This document shows positions 1 to 30,514 of a stretch of 64,000 nt of DNA, piece by piece. Under the pieces are notes generated by a model. That model searched no databases. It had not been told where the DNA came from and saw only the letters and a program-made list of their open reading frames with translations. Position numbers and translations under genes: made by a program. Origin of the DNA: Clostridia bacterium. GTDB lineage: Bacteria; Bacillota; Clostridia; UMGS1883. Where the stretch lies: contig JBJDXJ010000052.1 of NCBI GenBank assembly GCA_051866635.1, positions 14,744 through 78,743 on the forward strand. Direction: 5' to 3'. Within the stretch, counting starts at the first letter, position 1. Every line of letters starts with the position of its first letter.

Positions 1-806
1 TCTCCGAAGAAGTCTCCGAAGAAGTAGCTGAAGAAGTTGCCGAAGAAACCGCATTCGAGGAAAATGCAACCGAAGAAGCGGTTGAAGATTCTACAGAAGC
101 AGAAAAGTATGTTTCTATTGAAAGCCTTATTGCAGAAATTAAATCACTTAAGTTAAAGAACAGGGTTTTATCCGTGATCTTGGCTGTTATTATTGCGGCA
201 CTGGTTATTTTTGCCGGTGCAAAGGCTTACATGAGTTATAACCCCTATAATCATATGGGATTTTATAACACATCAGGTATGACAATTGCCGATATGGCAA
301 GGATGAGTGGCATGACAGTTGAAGAGATTATTGAACAGTATCAGCTTCCCGATAATGTAAAAGAAAATACTTATTATGATGTAATCCAGTATCTTATGCC
401 CACATCTGTAGTTGTAGAAATGTACGGTATGGATTTTGAAACAGCTAAGGAAAGATTTATGTTTCCTGATGAAGTTACAGGAGAAACACTTTGGCTTGAT
501 GCAGAAGCTACAATTCCCCTTTCTGTATATATTGGTACAGGTGACACCCTTGCGAACTTCGTTAAGGAATACAACCTTCCCGAAACTGTAACAGAAGATA
601 CACTTTGGGGTGAAATCAGAGAACAGGTTCTTAAGTTTGAATATGAGAGAAGCATAGCTCCCGAAGGAGAAAACGAAGTTGAAGAAGTGAATGAAGTTAA
701 TCCCGAAGAAGTTTATGACGAACCTCAGGCAGAAGAAACACTTTCCGAAGAAGAATTAGCTGAAATAATGGCTTATCTTGAAAATGCAAGCGAAGTAACT
801 GAATAA
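1..806 (+). CDS. hypothetical membrane protein, 5' end outside window (acidic EEV-repeat N-terminus, one TM helix, acidic C-terminus)
   Basis: Frame is open from base 3 through the annotated GTG at 174. SEEVSEEVAEEV acidic repeats are followed by a hydrophobic helix (ILAVIIAALVIFAG). No family recognised. Confidence 0.5.
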   Translation, partial: SEEVSEEVAEEVAEETAFEENATEEAVEDSTEAEKYVSIESLIAEIKSLKLKNRVLSVILAVIIAALVIFAGAKAYMSYNPYNHMGFYNTSGMTIADMARMSGMTVEEIIEQYQLPDNVKENTYYDVIQYLMPTSVVVEMYGMDFETAKERFMFPDEVTGETLWLDAEATIPLSVYIGTGDTLANFVKEYNLPETVTEDTLWGEIREQVLKFEYERSIAPEGENEVEEVNEVNPEEVYDEPQAEETLSEEELAEIMAYLENASEVTE

Positions 807-28629: not shown

Positions 28630-29136
28630 ATGAAAATAAATATTGCAAGTGTCATCAACTGTGACGGCGCAAAGCTTGATATTGAAAAGGAGTTCCCCAT
28701 AGGCTCTTTTGAGTTTGCAGGGAATGAGTATTCCTTTGAAAAACCTGTGAAAGTTACAGGTGAAATCAGAAATATCGGCAGTGCGTTGAGGATTATCCTC
28801 AATGTTTGGGGTGAGTACACGGCTTTTTGTGATCGTTGCGGCTGTGATGTAACAAAATCTGTTGCTAGTGCAACAGAGGAGGACATTACAGAAGGCAATG
28901 ATGATTTTGACGAAGAGATGTTTTCAATCGTAGGACATACGTTAGATATTTCCGGTGCGGTTGAATCTTTAGTGTACAGTAGTCTTCCTATGCGTAATCT
29001 GTGCAGTGACGATTGTAAGGGTTTATGCCCTAAATGCGGTACAGATTTAAACAAATCAGAATGTAATTGCGATACGACAAGGTATGACCCTCGTTTCGCT
29101 ATTTTCAGAAAATTAGCAGGAAATGGTGAGGTGTGA
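28630..29136 (+). CDS. yceD: YceD/DUF177 family protein (23S rRNA accumulation protein)
   Basis: Conserved position immediately upstream of rpmF. C-terminal CDRC...CPKCG...CNC metal-binding motif. Start set to the ATG at 28630 with a gaggtga RBS. The ORF-track start lies inside the promoter -10. Confidence 0.75.
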   Translation: MKINIASVINCDGAKLDIEKEFPIGSFEFAGNEYSFEKPVKVTGEIRNIGSALRIILNVWGEYTAFCDRCGCDVTKSVASATEEDITEGNDDFDEEMFSIVGHTLDISGAVESLVYSSLPMRNLCSDDCKGLCPKCGTDLNKSECNCDTTRYDPRFAIFRKLAGNGEV

Positions 29137-29139
29137 AAA

Positions 29140-29319
29140 ATGGCAGTTCCTAAGCACAGAACTTCTAAAATGAAGAAGCGTCAGAGAAGAGCAAACTGGA
29201 AGCTTCTTATTCCCGGCATGGTAAAGTGCTCTCATTGCGGCGAGTATACAAAGCCCCACATGGTATGTAAGGCTTGCGGTTACTATGACGGTAAGGAAAT
29301 CGTAAAGGTAGAAGCGTAA
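29140..29319 (+). CDS. rpmF: 50S ribosomal protein L32 (59 aa)
   Basis: Absent from the ORF track (<60 aa). Translation [59 protein letters not shown]. Confidence 0.9.
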
Positions 29320-29384: not shown

Positions 29385-29461
29385 TGTCGATATAGCTCAG
29401 CAGGATAGAGCGACCGCCTCCTAAGCGGTAGGTCGGAGGTTCGAATCCTCTTATCGACGCC
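29385..29461 (+). tRNA. tRNA-Arg (anticodon CCU)
   Basis: Cloverleaf folded by hand: acceptor GTCGATA/TATCGAC, D-stem GCTC/GAGC, anticodon stem ACCGC/GCGGT with loop CTCCTAA, T-stem GGAGG/CCTCT with TTCGAAT loop, encoded CCA. Confidence 0.85.
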
Positions 29462-29462
29462 A

Positions 29463-29494
29463 GAAAAAACGACTTGTTTCGACAAGTCGTTTTT
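29463..29494. terminator. terminator hairpin after the tRNA
   Basis: aaaaaacgacttgt-ttcg-acaagtcgtttttt. Confidence 0.75.
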
Positions 29495-29499
29495 TCATC

Positions 29500-29700
29500 G
29501 ATATAAATTCCTGAAGGAATTTGCTATATATACTTCATATGCGATATATCTTCGATTCGATATGTTGCCTTATGGCAACGAGTAGAGGAATTTATATCAT
29601 ATCGCAACAAAGCGAAGTGGAGTTATATCGAATTTGCGAAGCAAATATATTGCACGAGCGAGAGCGAGTATATCGCTAATTAAATTAGATATCTCTATGG
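29500..29700. repeat. cluster of short inverted/direct repeats with ATATCG / GCGAAG cores
   Basis: aaattcctgaaggaattt palindrome. Also gcgatatatcttcgattcgatatg, ttgccttatggcaa, atatcgcaacaaagcgaag, atatcgaatttgcgaagca and gcgagagcgagtatatcgc. Confidence 0.5.
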
Positions 29701-29797
29701 TTTTGTTTTGTATTATTTATTAAGAAAGGATTTTTGTAATGAATAGTAAATTTTTTCAATTTAACGTTTTCAAGGTGGGATATTTCACTAAAACATA

Positions 29798-29826
29798 TTG
29801 CAAACTACGTTATAGTGTGGTATAAT
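29798..29826 (+). promoter_or_regulatory. promoter TTGCAA-N17-TGgTATAAT (extended -10)
   Basis: Near-consensus hexamers ~150 nt upstream of the GNAT start codon. Confidence 0.55.
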
Positions 29827-29974
29827 TTAGCACGAAAGTCATCGGAGGACAGTACACCGTAGTGTAGGGGAGCAAATTCAGTTTGCGGCCGCCTGTCGGA
29901 TAAGATGTCGAGTGAGCTCGGTTATTACTTTTAGTAACAGCCGGGTATTTTTATTTTTTAGGGGGATTTATTAT

Positions 29975-30514
29975 ATGAAAAACACAAAGGTTGCTCTTAT
30001 GCCGCTGACGGCGGACGACCGTGAACAGTTCATTCTTGACAACCAGGAAGCATTTAGGTTCGGAGCACTTGAGGAGTTTGGCAAACGTGATGACCATTTG
30101 GATCTTGATGGGGAAATTATTTCTCGAAAAACTATTGAGGAGAGTATTGACTCCGAGGATGCTGAAACATATCGCATTATGCTTGACGGCGAAAAGGTTG
30201 GCGGTGTGATCCTTAAAATTGATAACAAAACACATCACAACCATCTTGATATTCTCTTTGTTTCCCCAAAGGTACACAGCAAAGGTATAGGCTACAAAGC
30301 ATGGCAGGCGGTAGAAGAGATGCACCCTGAAACCAAAATTTGGGAGACCTGTACACCTTATTTTGAAAAACGGAATATACATTTTTATGTGAACAAGTTA
30401 GGCTTTCATATTGTGGAATTTTTCTGTGAATATAATACTGACAATAACTGCCCGGAAGAAAAGCCCTCAGACGGACCTGATGAAATGTTTAGATTTATAA
30501 AAGTAATGAAGTAG
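29975..30514 (+). CDS. GNAT-family N-acetyltransferase
   Basis: Acetyl-CoA-binding segment ILFVSPKVHSKGIGYKAWQAV. Start set to the ATG at 29975 with an aggggga RBS. The ORF-track GTG start at 29912 would read through a terminator-like hairpin. Confidence 0.7.
   Translation: MKNTKVALMPLTADDREQFILDNQEAFRFGALEEFGKRDDHLDLDGEIISRKTIEESIDSEDAETYRIMLDGEKVGGVILKIDNKTHHNHLDILFVSPKVHSKGIGYKAWQAVEEMHPETKIWETCTPYFEKRNIHFYVNKLGFHIVEFFCEYNTDNNCPEEKPSDGPDEMFRFIKVMK

Follow-up and report, generated by a model that had tools for sequence, protein, structure and literature searches.

Results

A repeat cluster downstream of a tRNA gene is a full-length copy of a hairpin-array family

The cluster of short repeats that lies downstream of tRNA-Arg(CCT) in the window (the whole 64-kb stretch of Clostridia DNA analysed here) belongs, as a single full-length copy, to a conserved family of modular, structured elements of about 175–180 nt. 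A covariance model, R1, built from 37 non-redundant other members with the window sequence left out, matched positions 29497–29678 of the plus strand over its entire length (model positions 1–177 of 177; 141.6 bits, E 7.7e-34), and scored 46 bits on the minus strand of the same copy. No second copy was found when the 64-kb window was scanned with R1, and R1 matched nothing in the control loci, which amount to 808 kb and come from 80 related species; nor did we find a copy at the same locus or nearby in those 80 species. Both strands of the window element fold better than shuffled sequences (z = -3.4 and -3.1).

The genes in this part of the window are, in order, a radical-SAM gene, trkH, trkA, yceD (28630–29136), rpmF (29140–29319) and tRNA-Arg(CCT). 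Between the tRNA gene and the element is a perfect hairpin, H0, which is the bidirectional intrinsic terminator of tRNA-Arg(CCT). The element is followed by an AT-rich stretch, a strong promoter (29798–29826), a structured leader that ends in a terminator, and a gene encoding a GNAT acetyltransferase (29975–30514). The closest genomes are metagenome-assembled genomes of uncultured Oscillospiraceae/Clostridia from the ruminant gut, with YceD proteins that are 78–86% identical. Comparison with relatives, a check proposed in the first-pass annotation of this DNA, revealed that the 3′ flank of tRNA-Arg is indeed variable: four genus-level relatives carry unrelated DNA right from the tRNA end, and this DNA includes defence and mobile-type cargo. 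Exact look-ups of flanking proteins indicated that short-read contigs of the same strain break at 29422 and resume at 29842.

The first-pass annotation had described a dense cluster of ATATCG/CGATAT hexamers with direct and inverted repeats between 29500 and 29700. All six strings that it quoted occur in the window (at 29505, 29565, 29599, 29625, 29658 and 29541), and the cluster is real: the hexamer occurs six times within 29499–29675 (177 nt) versus 40 times in the other 63.8 kb, with an expectation of 0.11 in 182 nt (Poisson P = 2.8e-9; ~1e-6 when corrected for the number of such segments). No other 200-nt segment of the 64 kb is as dense in ATATCG/CGATAT, and the motif is well above its background frequency. 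The order of the hexamers had been missed: three CGATAT (29499, 29542 and 29558) are followed by three ATATCG (29599, 29625 and 29670). The inverted repeats were also correctly recognised; they include a perfect 13-nt pair (29500–29512/29586–29598) and an 8-bp palindrome (29505–29522), as well as others. GCGAAG (29612 and 29636) and GCGAG (29658 and 29664), which had been listed as repeat units, are present, but as arms or loops of hairpins rather than as independent units. The boundaries also require adjustment, since the element extends from 29497 to 29678 with H0 before it, and 29680–29700 is flanking sequence.

As had been proposed, the region is non-coding. Its sole ORF (29521–29679; 52 codons) has no plausible start context and overlaps the conserved non-coding family; we rejected a coding reading of this ORF because it lies within that family. 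We also agree that the cluster is not a CRISPR array. CRISPR arrays consist of direct repeats of 23–50 nt and unique spacers of similar length; here, the repeated unit is 6–7 nt long and occurs in two orientations, with hairpins of 10–20 nt between. Resemblances to CodY, Spo0A, NrdR and ArgR boxes were weighed and dropped once the family architecture was clear.

The features of the window copy are given in Table 1. Six of its hexamers are exact and two are degenerate (CTATAT at 29524 and ATATTG at 29647), and the degenerate hexamer b is common to the nearest relatives, L088 and L102. The array itself is close to that of L088; the H0 hairpins and flanks of the two copies are unrelated. The central segment S1″ is an alternative partner for S1.

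Table 1 Features of the hairpin-array element and of the sequence immediately upstream (positions in the window)
Feature	Position	Strand	Basis and remarks
tRNA-Arg(CCT)	29386..29462	+	ARAGORN; Rfam tRNA model, 70.4 bits; upstream neighbour, outside the element
H0, perfect 15-bp hairpin with A-run and T-run	29463..29496	.	Inverted-repeat search; ends 2 nt before the first hexamer
Hairpin-array element, full length	29497..29678	+	Model R1; only copy in 64 kb
Hexamer a, CGATAT; its GATAT is also part of S1	29499..29504	+	Sequence; R1 alignment
Hairpin L1: S1 (AAATTCCT), loop GA, S1′ (AGGAATTT)	29505..29522	+	Inverted repeat; family covariation
Degenerate hexamer b, CTATAT, and weak hairpin L2 (ATA-CTTCA-TAT)	29524..29540	+	R1 alignment
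Hexamer c, CGATAT; hairpin L3 (ATC-TTC-GAT); T; hexamer d, CGATAT	29542..29563	+	R1 alignment; family pairing
Hairpin L4, GTTGCC-TTAT-GGCAAC	29564..29579	+	R1 alignment; family pairing
S1″ (AGGAATTTATATC), central; perfect 13-nt complement of 29500–29512	29586..29598	+	Inverted repeat; family pairing
Hexamer d′, ATATCG; hairpin R1 (AAC...GTT, purine-rich interior); hexamer c′, ATATCG	29599..29630	+	R1-model alignment
Hairpin R2, ATTTGC-GAA-GCAAAT (holds GCGAAGC); degenerate hexamer b′, ATATTG	29632..29652	+	R1-model alignment
Hairpin R3, AC-GA-GC-GAGA-GC-GA-GT (gcgagagcgag in the first-pass annotation); hexamer a′, ATATCG	29654..29675	+	R1-model alignment

The family has a fixed plan with eight covarying hairpins

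Viral contigs searched for the 13-nt arms, with a gap allowed between them, yielded the homologues L087 and L088, and the hexamer-array pattern yielded a further one (L090 = L096). We then scanned metagenome contigs with the pattern CGATAT..CGATAT..CGATATGATANAAAT, which returned at least 120 stretches. The family is carried by rumen and gut metagenome contigs and by phage contigs, in at least 120 copies. We extracted at least 131 distinct instances; among the matches listed, 62 have exactly 4+4 hexamers and 14 have 4+5, and there is unit expansion in one copy (L114) and a short form in two (L126 and L265). Since the gathering pattern demanded hexamers, the invariance of the hexamers is overstated.

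The family plan opens with the variable hairpin H0. The 5′ half then has four units, each of X-CGATAT and a short hairpin, and is followed by a linker. The first of these hairpins is, family-wide, S1/S1′ (AAATYCC..GGRATTT). The centre is S1″ (AGGRATTTATATC), the complement of the first hexamer together with S1. Four inversely oriented units of ATATCG-X′ and a short hairpin make up the 3′ half. Sequence is conserved in the hexamers and the centre, and the hairpin stems are conserved in pairing only. Loops are T-rich in the 5′ half and of GAA/AAA type in the 3′ half, so that the two halves are inverse images of one another; the GAGC-loop-GCGA motif of hairpin R3 is common in the family.

Pairing of the stems is maintained despite changes in their sequence. 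For the 105 strong matches listed, 95.4% of 6027 cells in the R1 alignment are standard pairs and 936 cells have changes on both sides, versus 279 ± 21 in shuffles, with the caveat that an alignment fitted to the covariance model and a family gathered via its hexamers both inflate the apparent regularity. When the partners were slid as a control, pairing dropped to 20–50%. An independent MAFFT/RNAalifold run recovered the same hairpins, and additionally predicted nested pairing of the 5′ with the 3′ hexamers. We conclude that the hairpin structure is under selection. Each element has one type of base beside its hexamers (G-, T- or A-type), and this base is complementary between the halves in every register; hence, the nested ‘rod’ from RNAalifold has no specific support.

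S1 appears to have two partners across the family. Among the matches listed, the variable pair of S1/S1′ is CG in 56 and UA in 39, and the S1/S1″ helix is 96.7% paired, with a variable pair that is CG in 58, UA in 44 and unpaired in one. Thus, S1 covaries with both S1′ and S1″, and two mutually exclusive helices have both been kept, which suggests a conformational switch.

Rfam searches gave only chance-level matches for the window region at E ≤ 1, and only a tRNA match for 20 array-bearing loci at the gathering threshold. A blastn search of 29463–29975 in ‘distant’ mode against 50,697 phage and 72,556 plasmid records gave no match to the array; the lone plasmid match belongs to the GNAT leader. 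We found no description of a hairpin-array element of this kind in the searchable literature, the coverage of which is incomplete. The family is apparently undescribed.

Copies are dispersed among unrelated genomic contexts

Members of the family are dispersed. Some genomes have several copies, related phages differ in whether they carry the element, and the contexts of the copies are unrelated. Copies are found at gene 3′ ends, inside operons and after tRNAs, in hosts with a GC content of 34–52%. An ordinary 11.6-kb chromosomal contig (L098) has six copies, at its convergent junctions, and the Ga0256405 contigs have at least 12 copies at 92–95% identity; between organisms, similarity is limited to the array itself. 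The element is present in only three of 80 phages related to L087. Two of these three carry it between the scaffold and major-head genes, and the third elsewhere, including a copy truncated to the 5′ half. About 85% of the copies listed are solo, with no linked protein gene of the kind described below.

For the 57 listed copies with usable flanks, an upstream gene that ends at the element is co-oriented with it in 38 cases and opposed in seven, and the gene junctions of listed copies, as judged from crude gene calls, are convergent in 22 cases versus divergent in four. Co-orientation with transcription was seen for all copies linked to a PF05635 gene, and for the copies in phages (L217, L227 and L265) and in a tRNA operon (L214). 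With replication direction estimated from GC skew, the two strands were represented 20 versus 10 times (p = 0.1).

A strong hairpin of variable sequence ends 1–4 nt before the first CGATAT in 63 of 93 listed copies, with a canonical terminator attached to only about 10–20% of those listed. Direct repeats of 12–27 nt flank six of 89 listed copies, versus two of 445 controls; their length and position are not fixed, and no fixed target-site duplication was found in the 89 copies. Placement right after a tRNA, or after a tRNA 3′ fragment plus terminator, recurs in the family. Four copies with the CGATAT/ATATCG (type-1) tag follow a tRNA or a tRNA fragment, namely those in the window, L088, L126 and L214.

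Array hexamers change with the clade of the neighbouring PF05635 protein

In 17–18 loci ascertained by the array pattern, a gene for a ~115-aa PF05635 protein starts 13–20 nt after the last hexamer and is always co-oriented with the array. PF05635 is the Pfam family of Avd-like ‘23S rRNA IVS proteins’, which are four-helix bundles. A search that started from the protein gave the same association: four homologues of the type-1 protein led to eight loci, and an array is located immediately upstream in 8/8. In these loci, the array usually follows immediately on the stop codon of an rlmCD-like methyltransferase gene; because the type-1 protein-linked loci mostly share this one syntenic context, they are not independent events.

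A PF05635 gene in another locus (L104), 48% identical to the type-1 protein, is preceded by an array of the same design with TGATGT/ACATCA tags in place of CGATAT/ATATCG. Starting from three homologues of the L104 protein, we reached seven loci; these add three genomic contexts to that of L104, making four, and every one carries the second tag type. The type-2 arrays in those contexts follow tRNA-Arg(CCG), or tRNA 3′ fragments plus a terminator; those in L309 and L312 follow tRNA 3′ fragments. We counted both hexamer types in the 260 nt upstream of PF05635 genes. For type-1 genes (n = 21, the loci with enough upstream sequence), there was a mean of 7.5 CGATAT/ATATCG and 0.14 TGATGY/RCATCA, versus 0.13 and 7.6, respectively, for type-2 genes (n = 8 loci). 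In the 21 type-1 loci, the array stops 13–20 nt short of the PF05635 gene. Genes of these two PF05635 clades thus follow hexamers of different types; for a third clade (L121), no array of this design lies upstream.

In two loci (L151 and L122), arrays are found on both sides of the PF05635 ORF. Some PF05635 homologues are called as proteins of 133–195 aa rather than ~115 aa; their starts may have been placed inside the array. The nearest solved structure is 2RLD, an uncharacterised protein deposited with five chains. PF05635 proteins resemble the Avd protein of DGRs (PMC10053308), and an Avd pentamer grips an RNA stem-loop via flipped-out bases (bioRxiv 10.1101/2023.10.23.563531). Among the genes that flank PF05635-linked arrays in nine loci, there is no reverse transcriptase, and we recognised no template or variable repeat.

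A tblastn search with the type-1 protein detected no PF05635 gene in the 64-kb window, where the gene downstream of the array encodes the GNAT acetyltransferase. The window copy is thus a solo copy. As a solo, slightly degenerate copy behind a strong terminator, it is most likely passive and is probably decaying slowly.

Discussion

We consider the following explanation to be about evenly poised between right and wrong: the element is a dispersed structured repeat that serves as the cognate hairpin platform of a PF05635 protein, the copy in the window being solo and slightly decayed. The element would act as a folded single strand, most likely RNA, because operon-internal copies are always co-oriented with transcription and the array forms the 5′ leader of the protein gene. 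The folded strand would offer its tagged stem-loops for binding by oligomeric PF05635 protein, much as the stem-loop of DGR RNA is bound by an Avd pentamer. Copies that are solo, including that in the window, would be derivatives of complete ones, in the way that REP/BIME or MITE copies relate to a master locus, and they may still bind the PF05635 protein in trans or stabilise 3′ ends. Membership of the family, its architecture, covariation and dispersal, and the pairing of tag with protein clade are borne out by the data; we infer the binding of the folded strand by PF05635 protein, RNA as the active form, and the derivation of solo from complete copies.

Some features of the element fit this explanation less well. 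The hairpins of the matches listed contain 33 G-U pairs and 41 A-C mismatches. Such a lack of G-U excess is unusual in an RNA under selection on a single strand, and it argues for constraint at the DNA level or on two strands. GNA triloops and mini-hairpins of the GCGAAGC type are typical of DNA, and their presence in the element argues in the same direction. The type-1 protein is not notably basic, with a net charge of about +2 by rough estimate from its sequence. Lastly, solo copies are the majority and no PF05635 gene was detected in the window, so the protein may be cargo rather than a partner.

By analogy, the element would work most like a REP/BIME with a dedicated gene, and like the RNA that Avd grapples. 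The REP/BIME (REPIN)-RAYT systems are likewise made of interspersed extragenic palindromic units clustered in inverse orientations; like the arrays, of which this window has a single copy, they are multi-copy and lie at 3′ ends and convergent junctions, with a short conserved tag 0–2 nt 5′ of each hairpin foot, and with many solo copies plus a ‘master’ locus that has a dedicated gene flanked by the repeats. However, REPs have a GTAG/GTGG tetranucleotide 0–2 nt 5′ of a hairpin with a GC-rich basal stem of 7–20 bp, and are found mainly in Proteobacteria (PMC6006769), whereas the arrays are found in Clostridia and phages and their tag is ATATCG plus 1 nt (or ACATCA). Array stems are 3–8 bp long, often AT-rich and different from unit to unit, unlike the single palindrome of each REP family, and the eight units have a fixed order around a conserved centre. 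The gene linked to the arrays encodes a four-helix bundle, and that linked to REPs a Y1 HUH nuclease (RAYT/TnpA_REP); there is no Y1 transposase among ~50 neighbouring proteins scanned. In DGRs, a PF05635-like, pentameric four-helix-bundle protein is encoded beside the non-coding RNA whose stem-loop it binds, an arrangement that the arrays would share. The two differ in that the inspected PF05635-linked array loci have no reverse transcriptase or template/variable repeat, in that there are eight tagged hairpins rather than one, in that the array lies upstream of the protein gene, and in that most array copies are solo and dispersed.

Other known systems share fewer features with the arrays. 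The BOX elements of Streptococcus pneumoniae and MITEs such as Correia, RUP and ERIC are also modular, intergenic and multi-copy, with a variable number of units and strong predicted structure, but we found no sequence similarity to them, and the arrays have no terminal inverted repeats accompanied by a fixed target duplication. Sequence conservation extends over the BOX modules but is limited to the tags and the centre in the arrays. Intervening sequences with a PF05635 ORF are known from the 23S rRNA genes of Leptospira, Coxiella and others. They share with the arrays a PF05635 gene inside or beside an inserted non-coding segment whose distant parts are complementary in inverted orientation (Pfam description; PMC10053308); the intervening sequence is, however, a single long stem rather than a series of tagged hairpins, and the array lies outside rRNA and precedes the ORF rather than enclosing it (except in L151 and L122). 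Integron attC sites are recombination sites that fold as single strands, as the arrays may also do, and lie at gene 3′ ends; like the arrays, they have short conserved terminal motifs that pair and a variable paired interior. In contrast to the arrays, which have other motifs and eight hairpins and are mostly solo, attC sites have RYYYAAC/GTTRRRY motifs on one bulged stem and belong to ordered cassettes; no integron integrase is present among the neighbouring genes examined. A type III toxin-antitoxin was also considered and rejected. In ToxI, tandem direct repeats that are nearly identical precede the gene for an endoribonuclease toxin, whereas the array units differ in sequence and are inverted between halves, and the downstream gene, if any, encodes a PF05635 protein.

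The alternative explanations differ in how they account for the spread of copies and for the link to the protein. The element could be a selfish, non-autonomous mobile element of the REP/BIME or MITE kind that forms single-stranded DNA hairpins and is moved by an HUH/Y1 or other transposase, with the PF05635 gene as a passenger or a favoured insertion site. We regard this as unlikely, if far from negligible. It would explain the near-identical multiple copies within a genome, their presence or absence among related phages and their enrichment at 3′ ends and at convergent junctions (22 convergent versus four divergent among listed copies); a tag 5′ of the hairpin foot is the design of REPs and of IS200/IS605 ends (PMC6006769), and the absence of a G-U excess and the direct repeats around six of 89 listed copies, versus two of 445 controls, are consistent with it. 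However, no transposase is recurrently adjacent, and the flanking repeats are rare and variable in length and distance, unlike a fixed target-site duplication. Moreover, eight different stems are kept paired at homologous positions in AT-rich and GC-rich hosts, which is more than a transposase that recognises only the ends would require, and mobility of this kind does not predict that the hexamer type switches with the PF05635 clade. The same switch is left unexplained if the element is an RNA module that needs no protein and sits between cistrons or at the ends of transcripts, where it would stop exonucleases, stabilise mRNA or act as an insulator, for both convergent transcripts, much as REP does in E. 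coli operons. Copies do lie at 3′ ends and between convergent genes, adjoining hairpins and bidirectional terminators, and there are intercistronic copies in phage late operons and in a tRNA operon; in addition, the pseudo-dyad symmetry means that each incoming transcript meets the same order of units, and strictly Watson-Crick stems fit the use of both strands as RNA. Nevertheless, a barrier needs neither invariant hexamers nor a 19-nt centre conserved across hosts of 34–52% GC, the conserved competing helices S1/S1′ and S1/S1″ would be left unexplained, and a canonical terminator is attached to only about 10–20% of listed copies. We consider such a module improbable.

Two further possibilities had been raised in the first-pass annotation. 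One, an array of binding sites for a DNA-binding protein, anticipated part of what we observe, in that the hexamers resemble recognition tags and covary with the clade of the adjacent PF05635 protein. Each tag is coupled to a hairpin with a covarying stem, though, which points to a folded single strand (RNA or single-stranded DNA) rather than a duplex operator, and stem covariation between hexamers would be unexpected for duplex sites. Control of a neighbouring promoter, that of the GNAT leader or of the tRNA, by a transcription factor bound to duplex DNA is very unlikely: one hexamer does occur six times in two orientations within 180 bp, ~120 bp upstream of the 29798–29826 promoter, but neighbouring genes differ in nearly every copy, which speaks against a local operator of the GNAT gene, the element is absent from relatives that have this tRNA, and the spacing of the hexamers is irregular (~17–25 nt in other copies and 16–45 nt in the window) and not helically phased. 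The other, a degenerate att site or scar of an integrative element that used tRNA-Arg, we find hardly credible. The variable hotspot 3′ of tRNA-Arg in the four genus-level relatives is compatible with it, as are the arrays after tRNA 3′ fragments in L088, L309 and L312. Yet the window contains no second tRNA 3′ end (the 3′ 25-mer of the tRNA is unique in the window at up to three mismatches), and there is no integrase among the downstream genes, which are housekeeping genes, nor any recombinase among ten neighbouring genes scanned (nine of them downstream). The same element also occurs after many protein-coding genes and within structural and late operons of phages, 97% of listed copies are away from tRNAs, and the internal organisation is that of a conserved family rather than of decayed arm sites.

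Interspersed structured repeats have been well studied in Proteobacteria (REP/RAYT) and in streptococci (BOX). To our knowledge, they have hardly been studied in the uncultured Clostridia that dominate the rumen and gut, where the hairpin-array family is abundant (at least 120 contigs), extends to phage genomes and is currently unannotated. It may help to explain breaks in assemblies near its copies. The strict pairing of hexamer type with PF05635 clade provides a testable handle on the specificity of the protein. PF05635 proteins are numerous, with at least 7,900 matches in public data for each of two queries, and we know of no role for them outside DGRs.

Tentatively, and with somewhat less than even confidence, we propose that the arrays and PF05635 proteins constitute a previously unrecognised two-component system in which each protein clade recognises its own tagged stem-loops (CGAUAU/AUAUCG for type 1 and UGAUGU/ACAUCA for type 2), with solo arrays as binding platforms in trans or as footprints of protein-assisted spread. 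There is a substantial chance that the pairing of protein and array is a new system. If the two-component reading is true, it would provide the first function outside DGRs for the very large ‘23S rRNA IVS protein/four helix bundle protein’ family, and the arrays would be a new type of interspersed repeat, coupled to a protein and carried by Clostridia of the rumen and gut as well as by their phages.

Genomic context of the window array

In the same-strain short-read assembly (sample SRR30616850), sequence flanking the window array is 100% identical to the window. One contig ends in the tRNA-Arg(CCT) gene and the next resumes in the leader of the downstream GNAT gene; the array region is therefore absent from that assembly. 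In three related species, tRNA-Arg(CCT) is followed by a conserved stretch of ~250 nt that is different from the window array, has a terminator of its own and contains GCTATCGTTTCAAA twice as a tandem direct repeat. Unrelated cargo lies beyond it (AAA_15/TOPRIM defence-like genes, ImmA/HTH, AraC), and the stretch has the appearance of a conserved terminus of an integrative island.

The GNAT leader, which follows a strong promoter, is ~120 nt long and ends in a terminator hairpin and T-run. About 90 nt of it are kept in Selenomonas ruminantium plasmid pSRC2, in an intergenic region that carries no annotation, with the conserved pattern GTCATCGGAGGACAGTA..CCGTAG..GGCCGCCTGTCGGATAAG.TGTCG.GTGAGC.CGG and, as in the window, a terminator 3′ of the conserved stretch. 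The leader had no match in Rfam at E ≤ 1. It is a candidate for an undescribed riboswitch or attenuator.

Association of arrays with PF05635 genes

The order rlmCD-like gene, array, PF05635 (Avd-like four-helix-bundle) gene is kept across several species (L297, L300, L303, L304 and L122), and the genes beyond PF05635 vary among these loci. The rlmCD-like gene encodes TRAM and tRNA_U5-meth_tr domains, and in L300, L303 and L304 the array starts 0–4 nt past its stop codon.

A second clade of PF05635 lies downstream of a second array type in every case (L104, L306, L309 and L312). Type-2 arrays share the type-1 architecture, with the 5′ arm S1, its local and alternative partners S1′ and S1′′, and about 4+4 tagged hairpins, but carry TGATGT/ACATCA tags instead. 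They sit 3′ of tRNA-Arg(CCG), or of tRNA 3′ fragments and a terminator. Upstream of a third-clade PF05635 gene (L121, start near 767) we found no hairpin array; a simple tandem repeat, GCGGAAT x4, is in its place.

Direct repeats and plasticity of array copies

Long direct repeats bracket array copies in L087, L153, L124 and L213 (18 nt in the first, then 18, 13 and about 27 nt). The L087 repeat includes the 5′ arm of H0, the hairpin just upstream of the array, as if H0 of this copy were built partly from target sequence. On the same phage contig, two weak matches to the covariance model of the family lie around the point where an uncharacterised 468-aa ORF meets the portal gene, and may be degenerate array copies. 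Other copies carry a tandem triplication, an insertion or a truncation, or lack internal hairpins. We conclude that the array element is plastic.

Coordinates of features at the window locus and in comparison loci
Feature	Sequence	Position	Strand	Detail
End of short-read contig L002	window	29422		inside tRNA
Start of short-read contig L006	window	29842		in GNAT leader
Promoter and leader	window	29798-29960		TTGCAA-17-TG-TATAAT; just upstream of GNAT gene
Stretch 3′ of tRNA-Arg(CCT)	L007	6836-7050
Stretch 3′ of tRNA-Arg(CCT)	L009	6835-7045
Stretch 3′ of tRNA-Arg(CCT)	L010/L001	4325-4540
Type-2 array	L104	10895-11130	-
Type-2 array	L306	1225-1450
Type-2 array	L309	1235-1440
Type-2 array	L312	1225-1450
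GCGGAAT x4	L121	about 660-700	-	about 70-100 nt upstream of PF05635 start
Bracketing direct repeat	L087	4322-4339 and 4528-4545		18 nt
Weak model match	L087	1373-1494	-	49.6 bits
Weak model match	L087	1500-1661	-	41.2 bits
Copy with tandem triplication	L114	1236-1440		unit ATATCGtgttgaacgaagtgaaac
Copy with insertion	L227	2177-2462		130 nt, within hairpin R1
Short form	L126	373-486		without hairpins L2-L4
Truncated copy	L265	591-761		truncated 3′ of centre
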